Shown piece after piece: positions 5,023 through 60,900 of a stretch of 64,000 nucleotides of DNA (positions within the stretch are counted from its first letter, which is position 1; each line of letters opens with the position of its first letter). The DNA comes from Balanoglossus misakiensis (lineage: Eukaryota > Animalia > Hemichordata). The notes under the pieces are model-generated. The model saw only the letters and a program-made list of their open reading frames with translations, did no database searches and was not told the origin of the DNA. The DNA lies in contig CM082579.2 in assembly GCA_040954595.2 (NCBI GenBank), forward strand, positions 12,277,834-12,341,833. The letters are read 5' to 3'. Position numbers and translations under genes: made by a program.

Positions 5023-5174
5023 TGTTTCCCCATTTCCCGGAGACATAACATCTCTATGGTCTAATATTAGTACAGTTCATGATAATTTCCCAAGGATTGT
5101 AGCTAGTGGAACTTTAACATTATAGCCTGATTTTAAGAACTATAATGTATATCAGTCAGTATACATGAATAAAC

Positions 5175-5367
5175 GGAAACATAGAATATTTATATTATTC
5201 CCCGTATTTCGAACGAGTGTGCCTACGTCGCGGACGAGTGATTCCCCGTATAGCGGCAGTATCCCTCCTCGCCTCCGGCTCGGAGGGATACAATACAGCT
5301 ATACGGGGAATCACGAATTCGCGACGCAGGTACACGAGTGAGGAATGCGGGGGAATTCTATGTTTCC
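5175..5367. repeat. Imperfect long hairpin with CTCGCCTCCGGCTCG loop (terminus of another hairpin-ended element, body probably to ~6230)
   Basis: GGAAACATAGAAT/ATTCTATGTTTCC and ATTCCCCGTATAGC/GCTATACGGGGAAT pair. The loop resembles the CTCGCCTGACGGCTCG loop at ~14714. Confidence 0.65.
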
Positions 5368-10524: not shown

Positions 10525-10737
<213 letters not shown>

Positions 10738-10833
10738 TCGCCCGATCACATTACTTCGCTTTCATAACGCGAGGTAACCAGTAAAATTCGTTGGACTTGG
10801 ACCCCAAACCAAACCACGATGTCGCCCGTTGAC

Positions 10834-11420
10834 TATGGTGACCAATCCATGACAACATTACAACTCATTTTGTTATTCTTATTTCTATTCAACATTCCAT
10901 TTCACAGTTCAAAATTCGATTTCACAATTTAATGCAACATTCCATTTCTCAGTTCAAAATTCTATTTCACAATGCAACATTCCATTTCTCAGTTCAACCT
11001 TCGATTTCACAATTCGACTTACAGATTAAATCTGGGGACTGTCTATTCACGCATGTTGAATTCCTTTATTTAGAATTGGAATTTTGCACAATCAGCATAA
11101 TCTGGATTTTGCATAGTCAGCGACATTCAGAAATCTGTTCCAACAGACCGCTGACCTCGGTCGAATTTTTATCAACTTCTCGGAAGAGAAAGTGTGAAAG
11201 GGTTTTTCATCCATACACATCGTGCCCCAGCGTTTGTCCAACTCACCAAACTCTTTATTTATCGAATGCACACACTATGATGAAACTGTTAATGTGTTAA
11301 TTGTGAAATAGAATGTTGCATTGTGAAATATAATTTTGAACTGAGAAATGGAATGTTGAATAGAAATATTAAGAATAGCAAAATTAGGAGTTGTAATTTT
11401 GTCATGGCCTGGCCTCCATA
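10834..11420. mobile_element. Non-autonomous TIR element with TATGG...CCATA termini (IS3EU-like), 7-bp TSD
   Basis: CGTTGAC at 10827-10833 and 11421-11427. Long imperfect TIRs (>100 bp) are built of ATTCCATTTCACA/TGTGAAAT-type subrepeats. Confidence 0.75.
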
Positions 11421-11550
11421 CGTTGACACCCTTGCGTAGACTCGACTATGCTGTGTTTTTTTAGATATTACATTAATAACACGATTCCAATAGTGATATT
11501 TAAGGCATGAAATTGTGAATACTGATTATATTAAATATTTTGTACCATAG

Positions 11551-12658
11551 GGTTTTCTCCAGCCTCAGTTGTCCTTGCTAACAGGATCGGTGGTCTTGAG
11601 GAGGATGCATGCAAAGAGTTACAGAGTGATAAGATGATAGAAGCTATCCTTGCTACAGGTTCAGCAGTGGATCGCGCGTATTTGCTTAAAAATCATGCTG
11701 CATTAAGAACAGATATATCTGAGGGATCCACCGCCACTGTATTACAGATCCTAGAGAGCGCAATCAGAGGAGCAGAAATGTATATCAAGCTCGAACTAAT
11801 GCAAGAAAAATATAAAGAAGAATGCCTGCAAAGGCATTCTGGCAAAGTAGGTAAGGAAACATAGACGCATTCATTCATTCATTCAGTCATTCATTCATTC
11901 ATGTCATGTCATGTCATGTCATGTCATGTCATGTCATGTCATGTCTGCAGCGTGAGATGCACCAAAGTCAGTGCGTCAAAACATGTTCTATAGAGTCGTA
12001 CAATATCTTCCCATGTTTATAGGGTACGCGCAGAGGGGTAAGACTAAAACGAAGGACATTATTATCTCTATACAAAAGGGTGAATAAAGGCATCTTTATA
12101 CTGAAGGGCTAATTTTGGATGAACCAGGAATTCACGTGTAGGCCTATTTTCTCTAAGGCAGTGTTTGTTTAGAATTGTTTATTGTTTCGTGTAAACAGGA
12201 CACTCTAGTATGGCGTTACAACAATATGTACGTGGAGCTATATACACACAGGATGGTCGACGCCTTAGACTCATTTATTAAATTATTCTGATATTTTTTT
12301 AAATCTACCAAAAATTACTGGTTAGTTATCTTGGAACTTTTAAGAATTTGAACGTAGTCTACCCTACATTCTAACCCGTGTAACTTTTTTCAAAGTGTTT
12401 GCGATCTCATATAGCTCTATGTGTATGATAGTTTATCATATGTGCTCTTTTTTCAACTTTGCAGAACTTGGGACATTCTTTATAAATGTTCAGAAGAAGT
12501 ATTGTCTGAAAAATGAAGAAATTGAGAAATTAAAGACAACATGCAACAAGAAGTTTGTCTTCAGTGTAGATAAACTAAAACAGCGCTGGAATGGTATAAA
12601 GTCAGCTGTTCTGTGGGGCTTGGTACCAATTATCGAACACGAACTAAAACAATCATAA
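11551..12658 (+). CDS. IFI44-like GTPase paralogue 1, last two coding exons (11551-11850, 12465-12658)
   Basis: AG/GT boundaries with matching phase 1. GFSPASVVL...AILATGSAVDRAYLLKNH...ILESAIRGAEMYIK aligns with GIAPVTVIT...ASSATGSAIQHTHFIKNY...ILWDSLSVAERYIK of the downstream gene, with the same intron position. Upstream exons were not found. Confidence 0.65.
11869..11945. repeat. Intronic (TTCA)n and (CATGT)n microsatellites
   Basis: Directly visible. Confidence 0.95.
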
Positions 12659-12991
12659 ACATTTGCATATGAGGAACTTTTGATGTGTACAGGACGAAAG
12701 CTTTAGCATGTGACGAAAAAAGTTAAGGGATTGAGATTTTCTGTCAGGTTCCGAAAGTTCTAACCCTAAAGGTCTACGTTCTCTCGAAGCGAAAATCCTG
12801 ACTCACCTTGGTAACATCCTTCAAAACTGGTGATTTTTCATTCTGTCCTGCTATTGACTTGTATTTACCGTAATATCAGCCAAGTGTAACAACATAATTC
12901 TTCCGCACATACTAACGTGATTGTGGTTTAAATATGGAAAATAAGTTATGGTTTCAATTTTTCTTTTTCTTGAAAGGATACTTTATTTGTG

Positions 12992-15039: not shown

Positions 15040-18000
15040 CTTTCTTTAATCCAATGTTGCAAATTCAATAAGTCGTCACCATGACTTATCAAAAAGCTCA
15101 TATCATCAGCATACGCTGATAAGCGACAACGTTTCCCAATATTAGAAGTTCAAAGCCACTCATATTACTCTGAGTACGAACTTTATGGAGGAAAGGCTCA
15201 ATACAGATTGAGTACGACTGGCCCGACAAAGAGCACCCCTGCCGGATACCGCGATTAAAAGAGATTGGTGCAGTAAGCCCATTATTTAGCTTCAAAAGAC
15301 TTTCAGTGCTAGAGTATAGGAGCTTTATATAACTAATAAGATTGGGGCCAAATCCAAAAGCCTGCAAAGTCTTAATCAAATAATTGTGATGGACCCGGTC
15401 AAAAGCCTTTTCCTGATCTAACGAAAAAACACCGATCATTAGCATATCGAACAACACCATGAATAAGATTGATATTCTCAGAAATATGCCTGCCAGGGAT
15501 ACAGTAACGTTGATCTATATCAATAGTATCTGATAAAACAGTCCAAGGCGAATTTACAAGGCTTCCGGTAAAATGTTGTAGACCGAACATAAGACAGAAA
15601 AAGAGGCCAATTGTTAATAGTGTACTTTCACCCGTTTAAAGTGAACCGACACCTTCCTTGTAGAGAGATTCTAATAAAATCTTTGTGAAAAACATGAGTG
15701 ATTTGCGTCGTTTTTATTCACTTTCACTTATCGCGCAGCAGCGTAGCGTCGATCTCGATATGCAGTGTGACGTCACCAACTACGCACCAGTAGCAGACGC
15801 CACCGTGCGCACGCTAACGTACACAGACAGTTGACATGGCTGGCTCCCTCGCAAGTGGGAGCAAAAACAGAGTTGGCAAAAACACGGTGAAAGGTTTTAT
15901 AAGAGTTCCCGACCCTTCGGTGGACAGTCAAAATGCAAATCGACCTGAAAAATGGGTGTCAAACATTGGCATATTATTTCGGTGCTTATTGCTGAGACAG
16001 ATGATACTTTTGCTTCGGAAATGTTCGTGTTCAACTAGGTCCTATATCGTGAAGCATATTGCAAAAAAAAAAAAAAAAAACTACACAGCAAAAATTGTCG
16101 AAACAGCCGGGGCTCCTGATTTCCTTTGATCACCATATGACGAAACCGAATTTTTGGCATTGTAAATCAAAACTCTGATCGGAAGAAAGTAGTGTGGCGG
16201 AAATAGGCCTACTAGTGAACACTGTTTTTGTCGCGTACCCAAGCTGTGAATGCATCGCAAAACCATTTCCAAAGACAAAAACGACCACGCGATATGGAGT
16301 TTTCAAACGAAGATATCGTCGGATTTTTGTACGAACCCGAATACAGCAGCGATGAGATGGTAGGCGACTCAAGTGAAACTGATTCCAATAGTACAGCGGC
16401 AAGTGTAGACAGCAAAGACGATCGAGAAGAGTGATCGGCTTCGTCTTTCGTCACGCTCATGCTCATGGTGTAGCTGCGCTGCGGTAAATGCGAAGTTATT
16501 TCTACTGTCAAGGAATGCCGGTGCTGCCATGAAATAGATGTCTTGACAAGGCAGTTAGATAAAGACTTGAATGACATATCACGAAGCCATGCGATAATTT
16601 TTGACATTTAGTCACCCATGTCATAATAGGGACCCTCGTGATTTCCCAAAAGAATAGAAAGTAAGCCTATTGTCACTCTCGCGAAAATGTCTACCACACG
16701 TGTCTACCATCCTTTACGTTGATCAACAGCTGTGAAAAGATGCGGCTTTGTTGATCAAAGGGAGGCAGAAACTCCGATTGTCATGTTTCGAGTACATCTG
16801 TGGTGCTTCCAGATGGTAGAGGTGGTCGTTTTTGTCTTTGGAAATGGTTTTGCGATGCATTAACAGCTTGGGTACGCGACAAAAACAGTGTTCACTAGTA
16901 GGCCTATTTCCGCCACACTACTTTCTTCCGATCAGAGTTTTGATTTACAGTGCCAAAAATACGTCCATGGTCATATGGTGATCAAAGGAAATCAGGAGCC
17001 CCGGCTGTTTCGACAATTTTTGCTGTGTAGTTTTTTTTTTTTTTTTTTTGCAATATGCTTCACGATATAGGGCCTAGTTGAACACGAACATTTCCGAAAC
17101 AAAAATATCATCTGTCTCAGCAATAAGCACCGAAATAATATGCCAATGTTTGACACCCATTTTTCAGGTCGATTTGCATTTTGACTGTCCACCGAAGGGT
17201 CGGGAACTCTTATAAAACCTTTCACCGTGTTTTTGCCAACTCTGTTTTTGCTCCCACTTGCGAGGCAGCCAGCCATGTCAACTGTCTGTGTACGTTAGCG
17301 TGCGCACGGTGGCGTCTGCTACTGGTGCGTAGTTGGTGACGTCACACTGCATATCGAGATCGACGCTACGCTGCTGCGCGATAAGTGAAAGTGAATAAAA
17401 ACGACGCAAATCACTCATGTTTTTCACAAAGATTTTATTAGAATCTCTCTACAAGGAAGGTGTCGGTTCACTTTAAGGGATTAGAGTTAAATAGCTCTTC
17501 TACAAGATAACGGAAGAGTACCATCCTGAACTGCAGCAGTGAATACATCGAAATAGTCTTTGCCAAGAATGGACCTTTTTTATAAAACTCTGCCGGGAGA
17601 CCAACAATACCCGGGAAGCGTCAGCGATTGCGTAACTTCCTCAAAAGAATGAGGCAATTCGGCAAATCTTTTAAAAAGTAACTCCTGAGCTTCAATCGAA
17701 ACAGCATCTGGAGAGTAAAGCTCAGAGAAGAAATCTCTCGCTAATTGATTCGAGGTGGATTTTTTGTGAGTTAACCATTCATCATGAAATTATTCACACC
17801 TTTGTGGCGTTCCAGATCATAAAAGAATGACGTAGAACTGTCACTTTCATTCAGCTGTTTGAACCTTGACCTAACAACAGCGCCTTGCACCTGCGAATGA
17901 ATAATCTTGTCCAATAGATTTCTCTTTTCAACAAAAGTGGCAAACGCTTCACAACCTCTCCCGTGAGTGATTTCAATTTTTGTATTTCACGTAATTCACA

Positions 18001-24900: not shown

Positions 24901-27900
24901 GGGGGGGGGGCAAGTCCCCTGACCTGGGACGTTAGATAAACCAGTCAATGATTGAAAGGTGTTGATGAATGAAGGGGGTTGGTGTGGGAGGGGGTGTCCC
25001 CCTCCCACATTAGAAAAAAATGAATTATGAAGGGTTCAAAACTGTATATTTGAGGACTCAAAACATTTTCGGTGTCATCCTTGCACAAAAATTAGTGACC
25101 CTCCTCCTGACTCGTGCCCAAAATGCAGCGGCCCTCCCCCGAACTGTTGCATGAAAAATGGTGACCCTCCCCCAATCGCACCAGCCCCCCCCCCTGTTAA
25201 TTCTGACCAGGTCCTTACATGAAATGTATATGCGGCCTGTTCACGTCTTTGCCTTGGTGTTGGTCTTCATGGCACCCTCAACTCATTCTGACTAATTCTG
25301 ATCACATTTGCTCCAATTAGCAAGGGCACCTCTTGCTGATATTCAGTAGTAGGTACAACAAACACAGGTCCGCTCAAAGAAGGTAAGGTCCAACCTGATT
25401 AAACTATGATGAGGAACATCTTTACCACTAGCACCTTGAATAAGGACATCTGTAGAATCAATCTCCATTTTATTCATATAACTATCTCACTGCTTTCTTT
25501 TTAGCCTATTGTGGAAGTGTTTTATAAAGACACCACTGAGGCAGACAAACGTGAGGCAAAAGAGAAAGCACAGCGGTCATTTTCAATGCAGGTTGAAGAA
25601 GACCGGAAACGATTGCAAGAAACTTTACAAAAGCAGGCACGTGAAATAGATATGGGATTCGAAAAACTGAAAGAAAGGAAAAGGAAAATTGTTACCTATG
25701 AATTTGGTGATCGGAATGGCCTAAGCTCATTTGGTAAATTAAACACAGAACGCATGAAGAAACAAGGAGCTGTCCGCATAGGTGTGTTTGGGCCAGCAGG
25801 CTCTGGAAAAAGCAGTTTCGTTAATTCTTGTGATCAAACCATTCGAGGAGTATATAAAGGTATGCTTTTTGGATATTTAAGCTGCTCCAGAGACATTGAA
25901 TTGAACACTATTTTATATGGCTCGCCAATATGACATGAAAATAGGCCCAATAACCGCTTTCCTGTATAATAACACATTCGTCTGTCTTGTGAAATTACAT
26001 ACTTGCATCTGTTTATGTATGTGTGTGATATTTTACACATCTTAGCACTTAATATACATCTGGCACCGAGAACAATATAATTTAGTGTGCACTAAAAAAA
26101 CGTACAGAACGGAACGCGTGTTAAATAAGTCTTAAGGCACCCCAACTCACCGTGTAAATGTATGCACTGTTATGACAGTTTCAAGACACCCCCACTCTAA
26201 TGCATGTAAACAAAAAAGAAAGATGGCTGCTCACTGTTTCAGCTGAGCGGTTTACGAACGATTGTATCCGCATTTTGGGCATTTTCAAAGCCAAATAATA
26301 TGGAACACAAGAACTAACCGAGATGTAAGATGTTTAATAATAGGGTTATTACGAAAATACTGCAAAGTATGCACTCGGACATTAGCGCAGCGCATCGTGC
26401 GATACCAGGCGCTAATGTCCTCGTGCATACTTTGCGGTATTTTCGAATAACCTCATAATATCAAATCCACATAATACCTTTAAAATGAAAAAAAAATAAA
26501 TACTGGAGAATACAGAGGTATATATTGGGGTATCAAGTTGTTCACAAATTCCTAGGGCAAAACTATGAGAGAGGCTTCCTTTAGAAAAGCATGCTCAGAT
26601 GTCTATATTTTCCGAAACTGTCTGCCATTTTTAAGAAGTGTCGACTGCTAGTCATTTTTCTTACTAACTTAGAGGGTCCAAATGCTGCTTAAAGCAGCGA
26701 GAATTTAGGTGAAATACACAGACATACAGATATGAGGTACATTGATACCATGTTCTGTATTTGCTCTAGGTTCGGCTGACGCCAACCCAGAAGGTGGAGA
26801 AGGTACAATTCGACTTTGTGACTACCTACATGGAGAATGGCATTTCGTACTTGTTGACTCACGTGGATTTGGTTCTTACAAGCAAGTTGAAATAGATGCC
26901 TTTCATGATATATTATATGGTAAAATAAAAATGGGCGAACAAGTAGAATATGGCGTCCAGCAAAGCCAACATGCAGACACAGTCTATAACACAGAAGACC
27001 ATATCCATGCTGTTATATTCGTTGTAAACGGAATAGACCCACACCTTGCCAATTTGGTTGGTTATTTGAATCCAATAAGGGAATATCTGAAAAAAAAGGG
27101 TAATTTGCTTCATTGTATTTGACAAAACCAATACGCTATACCATAGGCCTACATTGTACTTTAAACCACTGGGTAGACTATTAAATTGGTGGCTATTCAC
27201 GTTATGAGTGACAACAGGGTAAACTGATTGCTCACTGAAAATATCTGATGTCCGAATAGATCGACACGAACACTGTCAATTTATTATTTGAATAATCCTT
27301 ATCGAACACCTGCCCACTAAATGTGCTTAACCATTGCTATAAGTGTATAACCTAAATATCCTAGTTTACAAACGGTTCTGCCAGAATGACGCATTTTAAA
27401 TGAGTTTTCTTCTCAATCAAAATTATTTTTCTAATTTTTACACTGTGCCACTGACTGGAATCAACACTGACTTGACAAAGAAAGACATACATTCTCTAGC
27501 CTGTAGAAAAAAACATCAAAATGCAATTAATTATAGAAGGCCTCTGAAGGGTTCTGTTATGACAAAACGTTTTCTTGGTTGTATATCGAATGTAGTATAG
27601 AATAGAATAGACTAGACTAGAAAAGACTTACAAACATCTATTTCAGATTTAAGATGTTAATTGCATGTACCCCTTCTTTTAAAAACAGGTATTGCTCCTG
27701 TAACTGTAATAACGCATGTGGACAAGATAGAAGACAAAGATAAACATGCTATCATGGTAAATCGCATTTCTTATTTGTCTACAATATATAAAGGTAAAAT
27801 TTGGATTTATAGGAAAAAAAATCTTCATATTCTGTTTTGTTCAAAATGTATAGTTTGTAATGATATGAGAAGTTATAATGGTTAATGTTGTATTGGTGCT

Positions 27901-38200: not shown

Positions 38201-38944
38201 TAAACTAATTCAACTGATACAGAATGTATCCACCTGGCAAAATCGACAACACAAACGATTACATCTGAACAATTAAACATTGATGATGATATAAAAATAT
38301 GTGATAAGTATGTATAAGTCGTTTAAGCTGAACTTTACACGCTACATGTCTAAAGTGCCATACAAATGTATGTGATAGCCAATTTAAACATTGTTTATCT
38401 GGCATCTAGATCAACTAATTCAACTGATACAGAAGGTCTCAACTAGGCACAATCTATAACACGACCCAATATATATCTGAACAACAAGACATTGTTCTTT
38501 TAAAACGAAAATGATTAAAATAGTTTAAAGCTGAGGTAATAAGACTTGAACAGCATTTACAAGTGGTTTAAGATGAACTTTAAATGCCACTTGTCTAAAA
38601 TGCCGAACAGATTCATGTGATAACCACCTTAACAAATAAAAAAAATGTGATTATAGTTTAACCACATAAACATCTAAAAAGCATGCCCAGTTCTCTGTGC
38701 AAAGGCAGGCATATTAATTCTATTTATTTGCATCGTAAAATGTAAGAACAAAAAATAGATTTATGCAACTGCATTTACGCAACAATTTTTTTGTAAACAC
38801 CAATTTCTTGCCATTTTATCTGTCAAACTGTATGGACTTTTGGTAAACAAAGCAAGTTGGAAATTATATCAACTTCAACAAATTCGCTGATGTTTCAACT
38901 ATAAAAATTCGCGCTTGTGTCTTTTACAAGTGCATCTACTCTGG

Positions 38945-41060
38945 GTATGATCTGCTGATGAGCGCCCCTTACTTCAAGCGGAAAATCCTGAAAGACAACC
39001 GTTTTAATACAAAATTGAGTCATCATTGATAACTGGTGATGATACAGTTATTTACTTCCAAACTGTCTAAACTCAACACCTTTATACAAAAATTTCTCAA
39101 CTTTGACACACTAACGTGCAATTTGTCTACGGGTTACAGACAGTAAACTGAATAATGCGGTCACACCCTGAACAGGTTAATCCCACAGTGACTCACCGCG
39201 AATGAGAAATTTAGCGACACTGCACAGTGAGACAAGGTTTATCTAAAGTAGCGTGAATTAAATTGATAAATTTGATGAACGCCTCAGCAAATTAAACAAA
39301 AACACTCATCTGTTTACTAAAGACATCAACCACATTAGTACATAAAAACACACATTCCTAGTCTTCTATGCAACTGTATGGTCAATGGCTACCTTATTTG
39401 CATTCTAAAATGAAAGAAGATTTAAAAATTGTTTATCTCGCATCCAGATGAACTAATTCAACTGATACAGAATGTCTCCACTTGGTAAAAATCAATAACA
39501 CAAACGATAAGATATAAACAACAATACATTGTTCTTATAAAACGAACATGATTAATATAGTTCAAAGCTGAGGTAATAAGACTTGATCAGCATTAACAAG
39601 TGGTTTAAGTTGAACTTTACATGCCACTTGTCTAAAATGCCGAACAGATTCATGTGATAACCACCTTAACAAATAAAAAACTGTGATTATAGTTTAACCA
39701 CATCAAGATATAAAAAACACGCCCAGTTCTTTGTGCAAAGGCAGGCATATTAATTTTATTTATTTGATTCATAAAAAAATACATCTACGCAACAATGTTT
39801 TTGATAACACCAATTTCTTGCCATTTTATCTGTCAAACTGTAAACAAAGCAAGTTGGAAAGATAACTCAATATAAACAAATTCGCTATTGATTCAACTTT
39901 TAAAATTGCGTGCGTCAACTTTGAGTATGATCTGCTGATGAGCACCCCTTACTTCAAGCGAAAATCCTGAAAGACAACCGTTTTAATACAAAATTGAGTC
40001 ATCATTGATAACTGGTGATGATACAGTTATTTACTTCCAAACTGTCTAAACTCAACACCTTTATACAAAAATTTCTCAACTTTGACACACTAACGTGCAA
40101 TTTGTCTACGGGTTACAGACAGTAAACTGAATAATGCGGTCACACCCTGAACAGGTTAATCCCACAGTGACTCACCGCGAATGAGAAATTTAGCGACACT
40201 GCACAGTGAGACAAGGTTTATCTAAAGTAGCGTGAATTAAATTGATAAATTTGATGAACGCCTCAGCAAATTAAACAAAAACACTCATCTGTTTAGTAAA
40301 GACATCAACCACATTAGTACATAGAAACACACATTCCTAGTCTTCTATGCAACTGTATGGTCAATGGCTACCTCATTTGCATTCTGAAATGAAAGAAGAT
40401 TTAAAAATTGTTTATCTGGCATCCAGATGAACTAATTCAACTGATACAGAATGTCTCCACTTGGTAAAAATCAATAACAAAAACGATTAGATGTAAACAA
40501 CAATACATTGTTCTTATAAAACGAACATGATTAATATAGTTCAAAGCTGAGGTAATAAAACTTGATCAGCATTAACAAGTGGTTTAAGTTGAACTTTACA
40601 TGCCACTTGTCTAAAATGCCGAACAGATTCATGTGATAACCACCTTAACAAATAAAAAACTGTGATTATAGTTTAACCACATCAAGATATAAAAAACACG
40701 CCCAGTTCTCTGTGCAAAGGCAGGCATATTAATTTTATTTATTTGATTCATAAAAAAATACATCTACGCAACAATGTTTTTGTTAACACCAATTTCTTGC
40801 CATTTTTCTGTCAAACTGTAAACAAAGCAAGTTGGAAAGATATCTCAATATAAACAAATTCGCTATTGATTCAACTTTTAAAATTGCGTGCGTCAACTTT
40901 GAGTATGATCTGCTGATGAGCGCCCCTTACTTCAAGCAGAAAATCCTCAAAGACAACCGCTTTAATACAAAATTGAGTCATCATTGACATCTGGTGATGA
41001 TACACTTATTTACTTCCAAACTGTCTAAACTCAACACCTTTATACAAAAATTACTCAACT
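38945..41060 (+). repeat. Recent ~980-bp higher-order tandem duplication in the satellite
   Basis: Anchor GTATGATCTGCTGATGAGC recurs at 38945, 39925 and 40903, and the intervening sequence is nearly identical. Confidence 0.9.
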
Positions 41061-41762
41061 ATGACACAGTTACGTGCAACTTGTCTTCTGGTAACAGACC
41101 GCAAACTGATTAATGTGTTCACCACCTGAACAGGTTAATCCCACAGTTACTCACTGTTTGTTTCCTTAATGGATAAACCGCATCAATACCTAACAAAATC
41201 CATGCGTAGTATTCTCTGTAATGGCAGACGTTTCAACTGCTATTTATTTGCAACCTAAAATGAAAGCGGAATAAAAAGACCATTGGCACAACATTTTCAT
41301 GAAAAACCCAATTCTGGCCATTTTTCTGTCAAAACTCCACAGATCAAGCGACGAAATCCTCAAACAAAATTTCCATCCTAATATGAAAGCAGGATAAAAA
41401 TCCTCATTTTTACCTAAATTTCATCAAATACCAGTTATGGGTCATTATTTTCTCACTGAACAAATTTTCAAATTAAAAAAAATGTACTCAGTTTGGCGTA
41501 ATTATACAACAGGATTCACATTGATTATTTTATTTCATTATTTAAAAAAAATCAAATATTTCATTCTGTTCATACACTCCATGCTTGTTAGCAATCAAAT
41601 AACATGTAGTATGTTTACTATGAATAAGACAGTTTCTAATTAAAACTAATTGATCATGGACGATATTCAACAGATACGCTCTACTCCGCTCATAGCATAT
41701 CCTTCATTTCACTTAAAGTGAACTTTTACTCGCCAGATGTATTGTTTTCACACACATTCATT

Positions 41763-46092: not shown

Positions 46093-47870
46093 CCGGGTAT
46101 ATTTGTTGTGATTTATCAGATAGGTAAACAGGCATATATAAGTCGTGATAGCATCAATCATTTTGCTGTCCGATCTCTTTGATGATATTCCTGTTTCTTT
46201 AATTTCAGGTCGTTATTACATGAATTTGTTTGGCATTTTAGACATGTGGTACGTACAGTTCAGCTTAAACCACTTATAAATGCTGATCAGGTCTTTTTTA
46301 TCTCATCTTTGAACTATTTTAATTATTGTCGTTTTATTAGAACAATGCCTAGTTGTTCAGACCTAATCTATGTTTGCCAAGTGGAGGCATTCTGTATCAG
46401 TTGAACTAGATTATCCAGATGCTCGATAAACATTTGAATATGCTTTCATTTTAGAATGCAAATATGTAGCCACTGACCGTGCAGTTGCATAGAAGACTAG
46501 GAATGTGTTTTCCAGTTGATGTGGTTTTTGTGAGTGTTTTTTATTTGATTTGGAAAGCCGTTAATCACGCGGTGTTTCTAAATAAAGTTTTACAATGAAT
46601 ATGTGTGAAAAAAATACCTTTGGCGAGTAAAAAATCAAATTAAGTGAAATGAAGGATATGCTATGAGCTGAGTAGAGCGGCATTGTTGACTATCGTTCCT
46701 GATCAAATAGTTTACTTAGAAACTGTCTTATTCACGTTACATGTTGAACAGAGTGAAATATTTTATTGTTTTTTTTAATGAAAAACATTAATAAATGTAA
46801 ATTCTGTTGTATAATTACGCCAAACTGAGTACATTTTTTCTTTGAAAATATGTTCAGTGATAAAATAATGACCCATAACTAGTATTCGATGAAATTTAGG
46901 TGAAATGAGGATTTTTATCCTGCTTTCATATTAGGATGCAAATTTTGTTTGAGGATTTCATCGCTTGAACTTAAGGGGCGCTCGTCAACAGATCGTACTC
47001 ATAGTGGACGCAATTGTATTAAAAGACATGAACACAATTTTATTATTTGAAACATAAGCGAATTTGTTTTAGTTTAAAAGCCTTTCCAACCTGCTGGGTT
47101 TGCTATTGGTTCATGGAGCTTTGACAGAAAAAAATGTCCAGAATTGGGTTTTTGATGAAAATGTTATGCAGATGGTCGTTTTATTCCACTTTCGTTTTAG
47201 GTTGCAAATAGGTAGCAAGTGATACGTCCGCCATTACAGAGAAAACTACGCATGGATTTTGATAGGTATTGATCAGTTTGCTGTCTGTTACCAAAAGACA
47301 AGTTGCATGTTAGTGTGTCAAAGTTGAGTAAATGTTGTATAAAGGTGTTGGGTTTAGACAGTTTGGAAGTAAATAAGTGTATCATCAACAGATGTCAATG
47401 ATGACTTAATTTTGTATTAAAGCGATTGTCTTTGAGGATTTAAGGGGCGCTCATCAGCAGATCATACCCACAGTGGATGCACTTGTAAAAGACACGAACG
47501 CAATTTTAATAGTTGAAACATTAGCGAATTTGATGCGGTTTATCTGTTAAGGAAACAAACAGTGAGTCCCTGTGGGATTAACCTGTTCAGGTGGTAAGCA
47601 CATTAATCAGTTTGCTGTCTGTTACCAGAAGACAAGTTGCACGTAACTGTGTCGAAGTTGAGTAATTTTTTTATACAGATGTTGAGGATTTTTTTCTGAT
47701 TTAACTAAGAGGGCGCTAATCACCCAATCGTACTCACACCCAATCATTCTCATATCAGACACATTGATAAAAGACATGAATGCAATTTAAAAAGTACCGT
47801 AATATATGAAACAGTGTCATTCAACCAAATTTTAAATTAATCGCGAATTTTGAGGTTTAATTTTGTGGAG

Positions 47871-50055: not shown

Positions 50056-52665
50056 TTAACAAATAAAAAAAACGGTGATTATAGTTTAACGACATTAAGA
50101 TCGAAAAAGAATGCCAAGTTCTCTGTGCAAAGGCAGGCATATTAATTCTATTTATTTGCATCATAAAATGAAAGAATAATAACAAATACATATATGCAAC
50201 AAATTTGTGTAAACACCAATTTCTTGCCATTTTTTTCTGTCAAACTGCATGGACTTTTGGTAAACAAAGCAAGCTGAAAAGGTTAAATCAACTTAAACAA
50301 ATTCTCCAATGATTCAACTATTAAAATTGCGTTCGTGTCTTTTACAAGTGCGTCCACTTTGGGTATGGTCTGCTGATGAGCGTTACTTAAATCCTCATAG
50401 ACAACTGTTTTAATACAAAATTAAGTCGCCATTGACATCTGTTGATGATACACTTATTTACTTCCAAACTATCTAAACTCAACACCTTTATACAAAAATT
50501 ACTCAACTATGACACAGTTACGTGCAACTTGTCTTCTGGTAACAGACAGCAAAATGATTAATGTGCTCACCACCTGAACAGGTTCATCCCACAGTGACTC
50601 ACTGTTTGTTTCCTTAATAGATAAACCGCATCAATACCTAACAAAATACACGCCTAGTTTTCTGTGTAATGGTAGACGTATCAATTGCTATTTATTTGCA
50701 ACCTAAAATGAAAGCGGAATAAAAAGACCATTTGCACAACATTTACATCATAAACCTAATTCTGGCCATTTTTATCAAAACTCCACGGACTAATAGCAAA
50801 CCCAGCAGGTTGAAAAGGCTTTTAAACTAAAACAAATTCGCTTATGTATCAAATATTAAAATTGTGTTCATGTCTTTTAATGCCATTGTGTCCTCTATGA
50901 GTACGATCTGTTGACGAGCGCCCCCTTAAGTTCAAGCGACGAAAGCCTTAAACCATTGCGGCCCAAACGCCGCCCTCTCTGGGCAGTATTTCTGTGGCGC
51001 GTTTCAATAGCTTATGAATAATTAATTAGCGCGATCATGGCGGTCGCTCAGCGGAGCTGAAACCTGAATACAGTGAAATTCGGTAAGTGTTTCTTGTCAT
51101 TTTTTAAAGATCTACTGCACCATACATCATAGTGTTCACAGTAAACGAAACAAAATTATTATTTCATCTGTACAATTCATATTGAATCACTGAAATAACT
51201 TTAAAAATAACTGTTGCTGAGGGGTCAGGAGAGTAGCATAATCGAGGATAACCTTAATAAGATCAGTGCTGCTAAAAGACTAGTAAAACGGGCTAAAACC
51301 CGTCTTGCTAGACTTGAGCAGAGGAATAATAATGTGAGACAGGAGTTGGGTGCTAGGACCTACAGTATAAAGGTACAGTGAGTTTAAACGATTGAATAAA
51401 TTTAATTTGTCAGTTTTACTCAAATAGAATTCAATCATATGCACAGTTAGCAAATGTTAGAGGAACATCGTCTGTTTTTATCATGCGAATTTTGAATTTC
51501 TTGGGATTACTAGCTTGCTCCTATAATCACAATGAAATGCTCAAAATTTAGGCTGATAAATCCACTAACCTCTTCATGTACATTTTTTGTGTAATCTTGC
51601 AGAGAAAACTAGATGCTTTGCAACCCAGGTGGATTCACAAGAATTCAGAAGTGTGTAAAGATAACAGTGAGGTTTTGAAATTATCACGGCGTGAACAGTA
51701 TGAACGTAGATGTAAAACCTTGTCAGCCGCCACATCTATTCATGTATCAACAACCGATACCAGTTTAGCCACTGGTGTAGGTAATTTTACCAAATTGAAA
51801 CCTTCAAAAGCTGCACTTGATGGTTTGTGGTTCACCCTCATCAACTCTGCCAAACCTGAACAGATTGAAACCTATTTGAAAACATCACCTCAAATCAGAG
51901 AGAAATTAGTAGACAAATCTATTGATCAATTTGAAAAAAAGTGAAAGCAATTTAATAAGGAGTGTCAGAGTTCTGTATGAGGGTGGAGTGCTACCAAAAC
52001 GCAAATACACTTGTCTGAGGCTGAGTGAACTGCAAACATCATCTAAAATACAAAATCCAAGTAGAGCAATGCAGTTTCACTTTGGCTGCAGAATACCAAG
52101 ATTACTGACATACAACAAAGTTGTACGCTAAACAGTATAGAAAACATTTTCCAATTTCCGAAAAACCTCTTTTTTACATTATTACTGCTGAAAAAGTTAG
52201 AAATTTATGAAAATATTCCTTATTCTTTGCCAATTTCTAATGAAAAAATTACATAAAGGTATTCTTAGTCTCTTTCCTGCAGCTGTACAGCAGGAAAAAT
52301 GCATTTTGTCATATTTTGGCTTTAAACTCAAATTAAAATTTATCTGTGAAAAAACTGAGTCTCCTTCAAAGCCACGTACATGACAGTCCTTTTGATTTTT
52401 TTCTAATGAAATTTTGTCTCCATGTTTATCATGAGTAATATTTCTATTGAAAATTTGCAAGTGTGTGAATTGTTTGTAAAATTTCGCCAGAAAAAACAAT
52501 AGCATCAAAAAGTAAATCTGAAACCCAATATTTATTACAAGAATTGTTAGATTAATATCCGTATCACACAAATCCGTTGGATTTCGTATGAATTTTAGGA
52601 AATAAGCACTGCTAATTGACAAATCCATATTTTGCAGCTGAAATACTTGGAAAAGAGTCAGTGGC

Positions 52666-52977
52666 ATGTGAGAGCTTGGAAATTTCCAAGCACTGACAAG
52701 GGTCAGTGGTCGGAAATTTCCAGACACTCAGGGAATGTGAGAGCTTAGAAATTTCCAAGCACTGACAAGGGTCAGTGGTCGGAAATTTCCGGACACTCAG
52801 GGAATGTGAGAGCCTGGAAATTTCCAAGCACTGACAAGGGTCAGTGGTCGGAAATTTCCAGACACTCAGGGAATGTGAGAGCTTAGAAATTTCCAAGCAC
52901 TGACAAGGGTCAGTGGTCGGAAATTTCCAGACACTCAGGGAATGTGAGAGCCTGGAAATTTCCAAGCACTGACAGGG
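52666..52977 (+). repeat. 69-bp minisatellite, left array (~4.5 units)
   Basis: Unit GAATGTGAGAGC(C/T)T(A/G)GAAATTTCCAAGCACTGACAAGGGTCAGTGGTCGGAAATTTCC(A/G)GACACTCAGG, period 69 (52733 to 52802). Confidence 0.95.
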
Positions 52978-53046
52978 TCGTGGTAGTCCCCCGTACAGGT
53001 CTGCGTTCTCCCGGCGTTTAATACATGACTTCCACCACATCTCTGC

Positions 53047-53440
53047 AAGGCTCCATGGACAAAACTGATTCGTCTGAGATCCGGATCCGGACAGCAGCTT
53101 TTCGGCCGAGATTCGATTTTATCGGGGGGAATCTTTCCCCCGTCTACCCACAAATGACTCCAAATATGATGTAATTAACTTCCGAGCCGCTCGCTTTCTG
53201 ATTTTCTCTTGTGTTTACCTGTTGAGATCGCCATATTGAATACAGTGAGGTTATCTCAATGGGTAAACACAAAAGTTTCAGAAAGCGAGCGGTTCGGATG
53301 TTAGAAGAAGTCAATCGTGGAGTCGGTTATAACCGGTTAGTAGACAGGGAAAGGATATTCTCCCGATAAAATCGAATTTCAGCGAAAAGCTCTGGTACGG
53401 ATCTGGACCGCAGATGCAACAGGTTTGTCTAAGGAGCCTT
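53047..53440. mobile_element. Imperfect palindromic MITE-like core inside the nested element
   Basis: Paired segments AAGGCTCC/GGAGCCTT, ATTCGATTTTATCGGG/CCCGATAAAATCGAAT and CCGCTCGCTTTCTGA/TCAGAAAGCGAGCGG. Confidence 0.7.
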
Positions 53441-53889
53441 AGCGTCACAATGTTCATGACAGGCTTCGCCTACCAACTCCTCTGAGTTAGCCCATACACT
53501 AGTTGTTTATTGGGAATTGGTATTGTTTATCTGACATAATTGTTCTTTCTACTCTGTATACAAAGTCACAACTTCACAACTACCAAATGCTATTGTTCTT
53601 GAATTATGCAGTGTTACCAAATGTCACAGTTCAAACCACTGTTTATAAAGAAGTATTGGCCATCCCGCCTCTCTCTTCATTCCGAACCTATTCCCAAGTG
53701 TACGCGGTACATTTGTTGGTGCCGAGACCAGGATGTCGGGCATGGAGAGAGAGAAGAACAGCAGAAGAGGCCACCGCAGTCAAATGACCAATCTCATCCG
53801 TAGGGTTGAAGATATAAACACAGGCGCAGTTCCTCAACAGATCGTTTTCCTAAAGGCCATAATTTGAAACATGATAGAGAAACTCAAGA

Positions 53890-54525
53890 TTTCCAAGCAC
53901 TGACCCTGTCAATGCTTGGAAATTTCCAGGCTCTCACATTCCCCGAGTGTCTGGAAATTTCCGACCACTGACCCTGTCAGTGCTTGGAAATTTCTAAGCT
54001 CTCACATTCCCTGAGTGTCTGGAAATTTCCGACCACTGACCCTTGTCAGTGCTTGGAAATTTCCAGGCTCTCACATTCCCTGAGTGTCCGGAAATTTCCG
54101 ACCACTGACCCTTGTCAGTGCTTGGAAATTTCCAGGCTCTCACATTCCCTGAGTGTCTGGAAATTTCCGACCACTGACCCTTGTCAGTGCTTGGAAATTT
54201 CTAAGCTCTCACATTCCCTGAGTGTCTGGAAATTTCCGACCACTGACCCTTGTCAGTGCTTGGAAATTTCTAAGCTCTCACATTCCCTGAGTGTCTGGAA
54301 ATTTCCGACCACTGACCCTTGTCAGTGCTTGGAAATTTCCAGGCTCTCACATTCCCTGAGTGTCTGGAAATTTCCGACCACTGACCCTTGTCAGTGCTTG
54401 GAAATTTCCAGGCTCTCACATTCCCTGAGTGTCCGGAAATTTCCGACCACTGACCCTTGTCAGTGCTTGGAAATTTCCATGCTCTCACATTCCCTGAGTG
54501 TCTGGAAATTTCCAGACACTGACCC
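53890..54525 (-). repeat. 69-bp minisatellite, right array (~9 units, inverted relative to the left)
   Basis: Reverse complement of the left unit. It explains the spurious 23-aa repeat ORFs. Confidence 0.95.
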
Positions 54526-57282
54526 TTCTGGAGTGACTAGCAATTTTTGCAAATTGTACTATTAATTGAATTCATAATTTAATTATTAGTTTTTTTCAAT
54601 GAAATATTCAAATCCATACAACCCAAAGATGGCTCCTTCATTATTTCTATGGAAATTTCACAGTTTATTCTTTTCTTTCTGCACACTCGCAAACATCTTG
54701 AAAATAATCATAGAAAAATATCGAAATATATTGTACTGTGAACAAAACACTAATTTCCTTGAAAAAAGTTTAAAAAACGGCTACTTTTCGGAAATTGGAA
54801 AATGTTTTCTATACTGTTGCTATGTTAGTAATCTTGATATTGGTACTCTTGAACCCATTCTGACAGCAGAAGGGAAACAGGTAGGTTTGAAACGTAACAT
54901 TGAAGAGTTACTTGTTAAGATTGCCAATCTGTATTTACAAATGAAATCAACCCAGCCAGACATTCTTAACTGGTTTGATAGACATGAAGGTAACTTCCAG
55001 ATTAGTATAGGTGCTGATGGTGCACCATTTGGAAAACATGGCCAAGCTACTGCCTGGTTGGTCAGTTTTTTTTAATGTTGGACATCGTGTTGCAAGCCCA
55101 GATGATAATTTTCTACTGTTGGGGGCAAATCTCAAAGAAGATGATCCGATTATGATTGACTATGCACATTCATTATCAAAAGAGCTGGATTGTATCCAGA
55201 GACGTAAATACAATGTTGGCAATCTTTGTGTGACTTTCCAAGTTTCGCTCTTGCCTTTTGATCAGAAAGGTTTAGCTTCAATGTCTGGGGAGCTTTCCAA
55301 TGCTGCACGGTACTTTAGCTCTTTTGCTAATGTTTCAAAGTCAGATAGAGATTGTATTGGAGCAGATATTGGTCCAGGTAAAACATGGCAAGAATGGTCA
55401 TATGACAAACGCATTAAAGATGTTGAAGCTGTGGAGAAATTCAAATCGCAACCAAAAAATAGAGATGGCAAGCCAAAAACTGTGCTGCCAAAAGTCACTA
55501 AATTTATAGCCAGTAGAAAATCCAGACAGGAATGTGTACCCCCTCTTGGTCGATTTATCGACTGTGCTAAAGTTGAACCATTGCACATGAAAAACAATGC
55601 ATGGCAGTACTATTTCCAGATGTTGTTGATAGATGCAGTTGCTAACACTTCACAAACAGATGTTGATAAGGGAGTTAAGATTGAAAATCTCCCAAAGGAG
55701 TCTTGTCTATACAAATTCCTGTCTGCATTAAAATACCAAGTGAGAGCTGGAAAACTGTACAACAAAATTGGAAAGTTCTTTAGTGAAAACAATGCAAAAT
55801 CACTTTCTCAAATAAGTGCTGTTTATCGCTTTACTGGGGAAGAGTCCCGTAAGCTAGCATGGAAATTCATGTCACTGATTAAGACACTCATGGGTGATAA
55901 AGATAGTGTAATAAAGCGGCGAGCTCGATTGGCTCTTTTCACATATCTTGGGTTGATGCTGAGGGATATTACCTTGCTCTTTTCAAGGATTAATCTGAGT
56001 GAATGGGATTTACTTGTCCTGAAACAGAAATATACATGGTACTTTTACCTCCATTCACTATTTTTTTATGTAAATAATACTGTTTGGCATATTGGATACG
56101 CAGTACCTAAACATGCAGCAAGTGTGTATCAGCAATTCAAACTTGGTTTGGGGTTGAATACTATGGAAGGTCGAGAAGCAAAACATCTGCGTCTTCTTGA
56201 ATTGAGTAAGAATTTCACTCCTCAGAACAGGTGGACCCTCATATTCCGCCATAAATACACAATGCTGTTTTGGCTAAGAGAAAGAAATCCAGAAGCAGAC
56301 AAATATAGGCGGGCCAATCTAGTTCAGTATGAACTTAAAGAAAGAGAAAAATATATACCCAGTCTGTACTATGACAGTGCAGGTTACTGTATGTGTGGTA
56401 ACATGAAAGATGAAGCAGTGTCTGCATGTAAAATTTGTAATGACCCAGTTATGGCTGAAATAAAACAAGCAGCAGTGTCTGGCAAGCTGAGTAATAAACT
56501 GAAGAAAATTGTTCTGTGAAGTGTTATTGCCCTTCTGTGCAAAATGTTTCCTGTTTCAGTGTTTTTAACTTACCGTGTTGAAATGTTGTGAATGTCAAAT
56601 TGAAATGAATGATATTATTAACATGTATTAAACTGGAATTAAACTCTGCCACAGTTCTGTGTTCACAACTGTTACAACAGATGCATGTCAGGCCATTGTA
56701 ACAAAACGGTATATATGCAACATCATGAACTTCAGTATACTCACAGTGTACATAAACATGTCATGATTCTGATACAACTGCATGTTATCTGTACTAACAC
56801 AAACCTTAAATGCAGGGTTAATGTGAAATTCTATTACAGTCTAAATGAATTGATTTGAAAGGTTTGTGTCTTAAGTCTATCATATAACAATAATATTGAA
56901 TATAATTATAAGATTTCCTTGCTAAATAATTAACGATAATCAGAATACATTAATTTAATTTAGTTAAAATCACAATAAGTTAACTTTCAAATCCCATGAA
57001 TTGTATATATCAAATTGAATGATTTTATATTTATTGAATGCTGAGAAAGTTAAATGCAATTTATAATGAAATTCATGACAATTCCTTGTGCTTCTGCTGT
57101 ATTGCATGTAATGTTGATTGTTGGAATTGAATAAAGACAATACTACTTCATTTTCAATCTACTGTTTTTATTTCTTAATTAATGAGAACACAACACCGAC
57201 AAACTGTATATATTGACTGAAAGTGTCAAGAATATTGGACAGAAGGCCAATTTTGCATTAGACTTGCAAAGTTACTGATGTT

Positions 57283-57936
57283 CTAGTTCTCTGAGTGCAT
57301 TGGAATGCTGTGTTTATTCCAGGCTCCAAAGCAAAAGTTGACCACAACAGATTCCCTGTTCATGTAGTATTTGACAATACACGGCTTTGTTTCTGTGCAT
57401 ATGACAGCCACTCGCTTTCCTTTGACCACTCTCGCCAGCACATTCTCCTTATCTTCGGGTCCGAGATTTCTGTCAGCACAGCAACCTCTCCGCAGGACGT
57501 AAGTCAGCTTCAATAGGTTGGTAAAGGTCAAGGTTACGATGGCCTTCGACGTCTTCTCATGGATCCCAAAACTATTCCGAGTGGCGTCATGATGAAATAC
57601 AGCAAACACTTCCTTGGGCATTTGTCTAGAAAAGCCGCTTTTCCAAGGCGATCTCCACGAAGGTGAGGCTGACAGGCGTGCGTGGAAACAACGCAGCCAG
57701 TGACCCATTTCACGTTGGAAAATAGGGAATACCGCAACATCTCGATAACGAATTTTGTCTTTTGTAATCTTGTCGTTCCTCAGTAGAACCCTTTTGGCTG
57801 AATCGGACAATTCATCAAACAGGGAATGTACATGTATAACATCCAACATACATTTTCGACGCAGAATTAATGACTTAGCAGCTCGTAATTTGCGCTGTAT
57901 GATTTTCTCCGTATCAACCAACACGGCCGCCGCCGT
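57283..57936 (-). CDS. Unknown basic ~215-aa protein, convergent partner gene of the RAG1-like transposase
   Basis: An intron-less open frame inside the element, starting ~75 bp from its right end. The context CAAG-ACG-GCG-GCG-GCC looks like CAAGATGGCGGCG with ATG changed to ACG. No kelch or PHD pattern is visible. Confidence 0.6.
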   Translation of the reverse strand, partial: TAAAVLVDTEKIIQRKLRAAKSLILRRKCMLDVIHVHSLFDELSDSAKRVLLRNDKITKDKIRYRDVAVFPIFQREMGHWLRCFHARLSASPSWRSPWKSGFSRQMPKEVFAVFHHDATRNSFGIHEKTSKAIVTLTFTNLLKLTYVLRRGCCADRNLGPEDKENVLARVVKGKRVAVICTETKPCIVKYYMNRESVVVNFCFGAWNKHSIPMHSEN

Positions 57937-60900
57937 CTTGGAAAAAGCGTTGCTACGGTGATGGCGGCAATCGCGCTTCGCAGAATACTGCTCAAACTAC
58001 AGTGGCTCTGGCCTTTTGCATCCTAATATGAAAGCAGGATAAAACAACTCATTTTATCTAAATTTCTTCAAATTCAGTTATGGGCCATAATTCGCATTAC
58101 ATGTTGAACAAAGTGAAATATTTGATTGATTTTTAAAAAAATGAAATAAATTAATAAATGTAAATTCTGTTGTATAATTACGCCAAACTGAGTACAATTG
58201 TTGTCATTGAAAATATGTTCAGTGAGACAATAATGACCCATAACTAGTATTCGATGAAATTTAGGTATTTTGTTAGGTATTGATGCAGTTTATCTGTTAA
58301 GAAAACAAACAGTGAGTTACTGTGGGATGAACCTGTTCAGGTGGTGAGCACATTAATCAGTTTGCTGTCTGTTACCAGATAACAAGTTGCACGTAACTGT
58401 GTCGAAGTTGAGTAATTTTTTTATACAGATGTTGAGGATTTTTTGTCACGGATTTAACTAAGAGGGTGCTAATCACCCAATGGTACTCACACCCAATCAT
58501 TCTCATATCAGACTCACTGATAAAAGACATGAATGCAATTTAATAACTACCGTAATATATGGAACAGTGTCATTCAACCGAATTTTTAATTAATCGCGAA
58601 TTTTGAGGTTTAATTTTGTAAAGATGTGGAGAAAAATTCGGAGGTATTGTTTTCACACATATTCATTGTAAAAATTTTAATTAGACACCGCACACTGAGA
58701 CAAGGTATATCCAAAGTAGTGTGAATTGTATTGATAAATGCGATGAACGCCTTTCCAAATCAAACAAAAACACTTTTATAAAGCACTCAAAATAGAAAAA
58801 CACATTCCTAGTCTTCTATGCAACTGCGCGGTCAGTGGCTACTTATTTGCATTTTAAAATGAAAGCATGTTAAAAATGTTTATGTGGCATCTAGATAACC
58901 TAGTTCAACTTATACAGGATGTTAAGTGGTTTAAGTTGAACAAATTCATGTGATAACCTGAAAAAAAAAGAAAACTCTTATTGTTTACTTATAGTTTAAC
59001 CACATCAATATCTAAAAAGAACACATGCATAATTCTCCGTGCAAAGACAGACATATCAATTGCTATTTATTTGCATCCTAAAATAGAAGCAGAAAAATAC
59101 TTAATTACTAAACATTTACATCAAACACCAATTCCAGTCCTTATTCTCTGTCGACGCTTAATGCACCAACAGCAAATCAAGCAAATTGGCAAGATATATC
59201 AACTATGAAATATCAAGTCATACACTTCTACATATTTTTCCACTGAACTCACTTATTTATCAACTAATTTTTCTCCATACCTTTACACAATTAAACATCA
59301 AGATTCGCGATTTATTAAACATTCGGTTTATTGTCACTAATCCATATATTAGTTTTTAAATTGCACTCATGTCTTTTACCAGTGTGTCTGATACGAGAAT
59401 GATTGGGTTTGAGTACGATCGGCTGATTAGCGCCCTCTAAGTTCAATCGGATAAATCCTCAACACCTTTATTTATAAAACTCACTCGACCTTGACTCACT
59501 ACTCTAGCTATTTGTAGCACACCAGCTCAGTGAACAGGTTAATCAAACTCTGACTGTTTGTTTCTTTAACAGATAAACCACATAAACACAAACGATTATA
59601 TAAAATGAAAATGATTAAAATAGTTCAAAGATGAGATAAAAAGACCTGATCTACATTTGCAAGTGTATTAAGCTGAACTTTCCATGCCACATGTCTAAAG
59701 AGTCAAACAAATTCATGAGATAACCACCTGAACAAATAAAAACTGATATTTTTTACTCACATTTAAACCGCATCAAAGTCTAAAGTAACGTACCTAATTC
59801 TCTGTGCAAATGTGGACATTGATGTATATTTGCATCCAAAATTGACACCAGGATAAAAACTCCCTGGACATATAGCAAACCAATTAAATTCAAAAGGTTT
59901 ACAAACTAAAACAAATTCGCTAATGTTTCGAATTTTTTAATTGTGTTCGTGTCTTTTACCAGTGCGTCCACTATGAGTGCGATTCGCTGACGAGCGCCCC
60001 TTAAGTTCGAGCGGAAAAGTCTTCAAACACGACAGCTAAAAAATAACTCATCATTGACAATTGTTTATGACTCACTTGGTAACATGCATCCTGTTAAAAG
60101 TGTCAGATAGCAAAGTGATTCATGTGATCACCATCTGAATTAGTTAAGCCTACTGTCTGTGTACTTAACAGACAAACCACATCGATATCTAAAAACACAT
60201 ACCTAGTTCTCTGTGCAAAGCCAGACGTATCAATCGCTATGTTTGTATGCATACTGTGCATACATGACATTGCCGGTTGTCATGCTGATAGCGCCCTCTA
60301 TGCCCAAGTGAGAATTCCATCAAAATAGAAAGCTTTAATCAAAAGATCACTCAACATAGATAATTATTCATTTTTCATGGTCTGTTTTTGTCTTTATATA
60401 CTGGAACATCAGATTTTGCTTCATTTGAGATTTACATTTCTTCATTTTTGAAGAAAATATAGCAAGAGACTGAAAGAATATCCAGAGCAATCTGTAATAC
60501 AGGTTTTTGCATGCCAAGCCAGTCACCACCCACTCACTCACTCCACTTCACCATATCCATGCTGGTATATTTGTAGAATATTTCGTAAGTACACTGCTGC
60601 CAAACATCAGGTAGAAGATCGCCCTCTATTTTCAAACATGAATAATCTCAAGCTTTGACAGCTATAGTTGCCCAACAATTCAGCAATTAGTCTGTCAAAC
60701 ATTACATTACTCATCACTTGAGTCGAAATTTATGCTGGAATGGGGAAGTTAGTCTTGCTCCAGACTGTGATACTGAAATGGGCGTCCTTATTATGTATAG
60801 AACGTCCCGTGGACATGACGCTAATCATTCTATTCCTTATTGACCGGCACAGCAACTGTCATAGAGTCTATATGTGGGAGTATGCACTGCACTGAACGTC

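Follow-up and report, generated by a model that had tools for sequence, protein, structure and literature searches.

The window analyzed here, a stretch of 64,000 nucleotides from contig CM082579.2 of the hemichordate Balanoglossus misakiensis, contains at positions 50954 to 58013 a dead DNA transposon with 2 convergent genes, one for a transposase predicted to have the RAG1 fold and one, here called ORF2, for a protein other than RAG2. The element belongs to a real and widespread lineage of two-gene RAG1-fold transposons in which the zinc site is degenerate and the partner is not RAG2, and we are close to certain that it is a genuine two-gene element with this fold. A wider proposal, which we put forward tentatively, is that it represents an unnamed lineage of superfamily rank whose activity extends over cnidarians and several phyla of bilaterians, and which has lost the zinc site regarded as universal in RAG1/CMCT enzymes and has independently recruited an obligate non-kelch cofactor in a RAG2-like tail-to-tail layout. 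A preliminary description of the window had suggested a separate RAG1/Transib-related lineage with a different accessory gene in the same convergent layout, and this suggestion is supported by the predicted fold, the co-occurrence of ORF2 and the differences in defining features described below. No description of the two-gene family was found in the literature searched, which did not extend to Repbase, Dfam, Repbase Reports or papers behind subscription.

The transposase gene on the plus strand contains, in the RAG1 order already recognized in the preliminary description, the motifs GADGAP (55010 to 55027, with the first D), PFDQKG (55254 to 55271, with the second D), VEPLH (55572 to 55586, with the LH motif), RFTGEE (55827 to 55844), and GREAKH (56169 to 56186, with the E), and a C-terminal CxC...CxxC is located at 56385 to 56438. 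The 481-amino acid C-terminal frame matched 204 proteins among 7,123 candidates, the best of which was a Ptychodera flava protein with 79% sequence identity, with which the window transposase also grouped; the other 119 matches listed were 34% to 43% identical. At E ≤ 0.001, a transposase profile matched 3,108 representatives (150 listed). The named members were from Nematostella, Actinia, Actinostola, Porites, Acropora, Ptychodera, Branchiostoma, Owenia, and Lineus, and the hosts are anthozoans, a hemichordate, lancelets, an annelid, and a nemertean. The ratio of nonsynonymous to synonymous substitution rates (dN/dS) of the transposase was 0.16 to 0.37 in the 6 usable pairs of 8. It was also noted that a distant branch of the transposases (P0313, P0328, P0330, P0352) has a C-terminal SAP domain, with a C2H2 finger match in 2 of them, and that 2 named members of this branch are from Branchiostoma.

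Relatives were identified in none of 41 stretches from viral contigs and in 1 of 84 stretches from prokaryote genomes. The latter, locus L081 (G001, contig 35), contains a complete two-gene element with open frames at 4241 to 12782, in a contig filed under a metagenome-assembled genome of Anaerolineae. This stretch is probably mis-binned animal DNA, because its 34 kb of flanking sequence consists almost entirely of satellite and contains no open reading frame (ORF) of 200 amino acids.

For the structural comparison, the homolog P0001, which is 79% identical to the window protein, was modeled with AlphaFold2 from 70 sequences, with a predicted local distance difference test score (pLDDT) of 92.1. 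A Foldseek search with the model gave 49 matches at E ≤ 0.001, and all of these that were listed were RAG1, BbRAG1L, or HzTransib, with best E-values of 1.7e-11 for RAG1, 1.4e-7 for HzTransib, and 2.7e-6 for BbRAG1L, followed by the P element at 9.5e-3. The VIA-align comparisons gave a Z-score of 21.9 to RAG1 (root-mean-square deviation [rmsd] 4.1, 465 residues aligned), 20.0 to BbRAG1L (rmsd 4.2, 461 aligned), 14.5 to HzTransib (rmsd 7.1, 382 aligned), and 12.3 to the P element (rmsd 5.7, 367 aligned), with a score of 6.9 in the row after. These matches bear out the relatedness to RAG1 and Transib that had been read from the motifs, and the transposase core is predicted to be an RNase H-fold with a RAG1-type insertion domain within the RAG1/Transib structural superfamily, at an identity to RAG1 of about 10% to 13% after structural alignment. 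The D-D-E residues were invariant, D181 in all 63 rows with a residue at the position and both D262 and E566 in 70 of 70. Furthermore, the Atlas features linked the transposase to clusters with RAG1 domains at scores of 0.90 to 0.97; in the top cluster, PF26100 was present in 10% of the members. As for the nonamer-binding region, 1 of 4 RAG1 rows aligned model residue 4 to RAG1 residue 411 (Z-score 17.1, rmsd 6.6) and the others started at 43 to 50; the LSRR motif (LSRREQYERR) lies upstream of the modeled sequence, so that the model starts after it.

The zinc-site residues set the family apart. All described CMCT/RAG1 transposase lineages share a C(2)C motif, which follows the second D (PMC12730594, PMC4079192). 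It was present in none of 70 close relatives (alignment A1) and in none of 48 diverse sequences (A4), in which the positions were mostly S-x-x-A. The histidine pair before the catalytic E, which has the form H(3-4)H in the CMCT clade, was found in 24 of the 70 close and 9 of the 48 diverse sequences, with the second histidine present in 66 of 70 and the first replaced by tyrosine in the window copy. An early reading, according to which the pair had been lost completely, was ruled out by the 24 sequences that retain it. Among the close relatives, 65 of 67 have the separate CxC..CxxC at the end of the protein, as do 25 of 42 among the diverse sequences. The residue patterns suggest that the core zinc site has been lost in the family.

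The second gene lies tail-to-tail with the transposase gene, as previously described, within a minus-strand ORF at 57283 to 57996. Its association with the transposase was examined in 80 metagenome loci, which were fetched with the transposase alignment and represent the best 80 of 260 confirmed. The ORF2 sequence of the window alone matched 31 of the 80 loci at E ≤ 0.003 (in a small database), in all cases on the opposite strand and downstream of the transposase. With an ORF2 profile, a convergent match was obtained in 32 of the 35 loci with at least 1,400 bp of downstream sequence (the remaining 45 were too short to be informative), in 33 of 41 at 1,000 bp and in 20 of 21 at 2,000 bp. No same-strand downstream match was found among the informative loci, and upstream of the transposase there was a weak match of 33 amino acids in 3 of 31 loci, all from one family.

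To compare the evolution of the 2 genes, the loci with ORF2 plus L081 were grouped below 80% identity into 16 families, which are not independent of each other. A Mantel test across these families showed the transposase and ORF2 distances to be correlated (rho 0.754, p 0.0002); the main clades were common to both trees. Among the 5 ORF2 pairs with dS above 0.15, dN/dS was 0.33, 0.30, 0.32, 0.15, and 0.25, and 4 near-identical pairs gave 0.5, 0.27, 1.53, and an undefined value. Taken together, the sequence comparisons indicate that both genes are under purifying selection and are inherited together, with ORF2 evolving faster (mean identity 23% vs. 41% for the transposase). When ORF2 was used as a single sequence to search proteins, none of 722 candidates matched, and the ORF2 family came to light only through the loci and the profile, which identified 29 proteins among 2,981 candidates. 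An origin of ORF2 as a duplicated piece of the transposase was not supported (hhalign probability 0.2).

The ORF2 proteins are about 190 to 250 amino acids long (typically about 210; 254 in the longest of 37 aligned sequences), mostly begin with MA and are basic, with an isoelectric point of at least 9 in 14 of 16 full-length sequences. Only P, F, Y, and N residues were near-invariant; no catalytic or chromatin-reader motif was conserved, and CxxC was present in 1 of the 37 aligned sequences. A model from the 37 sequences (pLDDT 87.3) consists of 3 long helices, with a predicted helical hairpin, followed by a small alpha/beta domain. RAG2 is a six-bladed propeller (PMC7204232), and the anatomy of the predicted ORF2 model is not that of a six-bladed kelch propeller, in agreement with the earlier suggestion that the second gene is not RAG2. 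Foldseek matched the model to nothing in the PDB or among viral models at E ≤ 0.001, and the VIA-align rows were generic helical hairpins (best Z-score 9.1, rmsd 1.3, 65 aligned), with weak TBP-like, helix-grip and archaeal-virus folds for the C-terminal domain (Z-scores 3.4 to 5.1). No kelch protein was listed in the fold-search rows, which by itself excludes nothing. Pfam and PDB-sequence searches with ORF2 gave no meaningful match, and a Helicase_C lead from the Atlas (score 0.77) was rejected as below chance level.

The limits of the element in the window, 50954 and 58013, agree with those proposed previously: the surrounding repeat ends at 50953 and picks up again at 58014 to 58015, uninterrupted versions of the flank are located at 46864 to 47273 (minus strand) and at 41341 to 41449 (near 41370), and contigs of runs X1 and X2, which represent one sample from one study, join 50953 to 58015 in a flank without the element. 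All these uninterrupted versions, including those in the contigs, may be paralogous repeat units rather than an orthologous empty site. A closely similar copy of the element is also present in X1/X2 and continues for 7 bases past 58013 into a different flank. These bases complete a right terminus that starts with CAC, which places the GCAGTATT block at offset 29 from both ends; they also overturned an early reading of GGCC termini with a 6-bp duplication. The left terminus of the window copy (50954 to 50990, plus strand) is a CAT-start variant of the same motif, and the right terminus (57984 to 58013, minus strand) lacks the outer 7 bases.

The relatives have short inverted repeats starting with CACGCYGGG or close variants, the right one about 40 to 155 bp from the start of ORF2. 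Target duplications were scored in 10 elements with both ends and flanks, leaving out L018 (no left flank), L006 (only the inner repeat), and L013 and L021 (a mutated end), and taking the outer of 2 candidate left ends in L008 and L009. A perfect 3-bp duplication was found in 4 of these 10 (ATT, AGC, TAG, and ATA; P 2.6e-5 for 4 by chance), and duplications of 4, 5, or 6 bp in none. The cleanest case is L081, which is inserted in a 294-bp satellite; a single ATA was seen in 18 of its empty units and a double one in 0. A second terminus-like repeat was observed about 845 bp inside the left end in L007, L008, L009, and L033, all of one family.

Several observations weigh against the explanation that we favor below. 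No sequence-level match to RAG1 or Transib was obtained in Pfam or PDB sequences with 1 sequence and 2 profiles, and the assignment to the RAG1 fold rests on a predicted model and the Atlas features. The pairing of D181, D262, and E566 with RAG1 D600, D708, and E962, numbered as in the preliminary description, is inferred, as the alignments gave ranges rather than residue pairs. The 3-bp duplication was absent from 6 of the 10 complete elements (one of which had 2 bp); several of the mismatched cases share one flank with another locus, which suggests chimeric assembly of multicopy elements. ORF2 was not matched in 3 of the 35 informative loci (L020, L063, and L077, at 1,400 bp), and there is some circularity in the count, since these same loci went into the profile. 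One near-identical ORF2 pair had 1 synonymous and 5 nonsynonymous changes. Finally, the linkage and the congruent trees follow from the sharing of one element and are no evidence of contact between the proteins.

Compared with named transposons, the family resembles the RAGL/ProtoRAG elements in the RAG1 fold, which gave the best structural matches, the D-D-E residues, the CAC termini, the 2 convergent genes, the Cys-rich C-terminal tail, and the marine invertebrate hosts. However, the second gene of RAGL is a kelch RAG2L, whereas ORF2 is non-kelch and has no PHD; the duplication is 5 bp in RAGL and 3 bp here, C(2)C is absent, the identity is about 12%, and the tail motif is CxC-x10-CxxC rather than CCGHC. 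Transib shares the fold family (HzTransib) and the CAC termini, but has a single gene, 5-bp duplications and a retained C(2)C. The CAC termini, the 3-bp duplication and the LH motif (L369-H370 in 70 of 70 sequences) are shared with Chapaev3, which differs in having C(2)C, in the H(4)H pair that only the minority of sequences retain here, in the conserved second gene of our family, and in its TWA duplications (PMC4079192). Nor does the family have the N-terminal Chapa zinc finger of Chapaev and Chapaev3; CxxC was found in the N-terminal part of none of 19 sequences with at least 120 residues there, most of which are gene-caller products that may miss upstream exons. The element probably works like a RAGL or Transib element, but by the features that define them (kelch partner, 5-bp duplication and C(2)C for RAGL; single gene, 5-bp duplication and C(2)C for Transib; TWA, Chapa finger and C(2)C for Chapaev3; PMC4079192, PMC4411706), the family falls outside RAGL, Transib, and Chapaev3 alike.

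EnSpm/CACTA and the wider CMCT clade (Mirage, Plavaka, ESTA, Lanisha) have in common with the family the CA..TG termini, a duplication of 2 to 5 bp and a RAG1-related core. CACTA elements likewise carry a second gene. The family differs in the absent C(2)C and in the convergent orientation of the second gene, and the Pfam families of the CACTA transposase or accessory protein had no match in 70 transposases and 21 ORF2 sequences. The CMCT definition, 5'-CA..TG-3' termini and a target site duplication of 2 to 5 bp (PMC12730594), describes our elements on both points; fold and ends agree with membership of this clade, but the zinc motif does not.

A plausible though not favored alternative is that Repbase or Dfam already contains the family, for instance under EnSpm, Chapaev3, or Transib of Nematostella or Acropora, and that only the second gene and the zinc loss have gone unremarked. 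Nematostella repeats were curated early, and several near-identical annotated copies (a cluster of 9 proteins) were identified in this genus. In the same direction, 26 of the 29 ORF2 relatives bear the precomputed Pfam accession PF26709, and CAC termini with 3-bp duplications are a working criterion for the EnSpm and Chapaev labels (PMC12730594, PMC4079192). However, the C(2)C common to those lineages is missing from all sequences of both alignments, the 4 observed duplications do not follow the TWA of Chapaev3, and the database names of the homologs are all "uncharacterized" or "hypothetical".

The explanation that we favor, with moderate confidence, is that the window contains an inactivated cut-and-paste element of 2 genes, one for a RAG1-fold enzyme without C(2)C and the other for a likely helper of efficient transposition, with one inward-facing gene starting near each end. 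By analogy with RAG1 and Transib, the transposase would bind the bipartite ends, cleave beside CAC, probably via a hairpin on the flanking DNA, and insert with a 3-bp stagger. The anatomy of the basic ORF2 protein of about 210 amino acids suggests that it could dimerize through the N-terminal helical hairpin and bind either the transposase-end complex or the end DNA, in a role like that of RAG2L, TnpA, or the Harbinger Myb protein; judged from anatomy only, a direct part in transposition is slightly favored. The main rival reading, though somewhat unlikely, is that ORF2 instead acts outside the cutting complex as a regulator or anti-silencing factor, comparable to the TET/JBP cargo of fungal CMCT elements or to a repressor of the element's own promoters. 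Its faster evolution and the chromatin-acting cargo genes reported for CMCT elements (PMC12730594) are consistent with such a role, and the TBP-like and helix-grip likeness of its C-terminal domain is too weak to decide. But TET/JBP genes from one host genus cluster together and shift from one superfamily to another (PMC12730594), whereas ORF2 tracks the transposase tree across the 16 families, keeps one position and orientation, and has no conserved catalytic or chromatin-reader motif.

It is improbable that the family descends from RAGL by a replacement of RAG2L, at its original site, with a different gene, in which case the convergent layout would be inherited: the model is closer to RAG1 and BbRAG1L than to HzTransib, the layout is the same and the host range similar (PMC7204232), and the ends of the window copy are bipartite and symmetric, but HzTransib is a shorter protein, which lowers its Z-score, the duplications are of 3 rather than 5 bp, inward-facing end genes could arise independently from end-linked promoters, and the identity to RAG1 falls below the average of 26% across the RAG1L core and Transib proteins (Tao et al., PMC9435367), which points to a split older than that of RAG1L and Transib and favors an old, separate branch with an independent tail-to-tail layout.

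The window copy is dead, as is evident from its frameshifts, lost start codon, and missing right-end bases, and its own target duplication is unreadable. The N-terminal part of the transposase is located at 51603 to 52130 (plus strand, by tblastn of P0001 residues 1 to 114) and the core and C-terminus at 54819 to 56519 (plus strand, by open frames, homologs and the fold match of P0001), with a frameshift near 51934 in the former and near 55069 in the latter relative to the X1/X2 copy, which has neither. At 51213 to 51219 the X1/X2 copy carries 996 other letters, making the window copy about 1 kb shorter. A possible upstream coding exon lies at 51211 to 51372 (plus strand; an open frame with candidate splice sites and no start codon within), and with a candidate donor at 51083 and acceptor at 51602, splicing at the 5' end of this gene is plausible. 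An AT-rich spacer (56520 to 57282), which contains motifs resembling poly(A)-signal hexamers on both strands, holds both predicted 3' ends. ORF2 itself covers 57283 to 57936 on the minus strand (217 codons, isoelectric point 10.0), and its start codon at 57935 is ACG in the window and ATG in X1/X2.

The 2 parts of the transposase gene are separated by a nested, unrelated nonautonomous DNA transposon at 52131 to 54818. The preliminary description had taken this 2.7-kb gap for an intron, a reading ruled out by its 34-bp terminal inverted repeats and 4-bp GCTA duplication, by homologs that read straight across and by the X1/X2 copy, which is without 2,692 bases at 52127 to 54818 (4 letters fit either side). 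The nested transposon contains 2 inverted arrays of a 69-bp unit, at 52658 to 52984 (4.8 copies) and 53889 to 54527 (9.3 copies), and an inner palindrome of 394 bp at 53047 to 53440. Very high contig depth in X1/X2 suggests that it belongs to a high-copy family.

The insertion had also been placed in a satellite, and repeats do flank the element, but the term is loose. The flanks, at about 33.3 to 60.3 kb (33350 to 60260), are a 27-kb mosaic of diverged repeat pieces of 65% to 95% identity in both orientations, with near-tandem 1-kb duplications such as that at 38382 to 41154, and no array was reported there by Tandem Repeats Finder (period up to 500). Elsewhere in the window we noted a pair of 655-bp inverted repeats with 98% identity at 15636 to 17476, possibly another recent nonautonomous element, 2 long minus-strand frames at 6437 to 8706 that by eye resemble the reverse transcriptase region of a long interspersed nuclear element, and plus-strand frames at 25505 to 27122 with a P-loop-like motif, GPAGSGKSSF, that resemble exons of a GTPase-domain gene.

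The size of the family, which was not seen by Pfam, means that it probably makes up an unclassified part of the genomes of corals and other invertebrates. In research on the origin of adaptive immunity it has long been asked how RAG1 became dependent on RAG2, and the comparisons have so far included only the lone Transib and the RAG2L-bearing RAGL. If a lineage of superfamily rank is confirmed, it would provide a second natural experiment on the way in which enzymes of the RAG1 type gain a partner subunit. The third arrangement described here, a RAG1-fold enzyme with a different conserved partner and without C(2)C, makes it testable whether a partner has been recruited more than once and what role the zinc site has, with intact copies available for such tests in L081, Nematostella P0032, and X1/X2.

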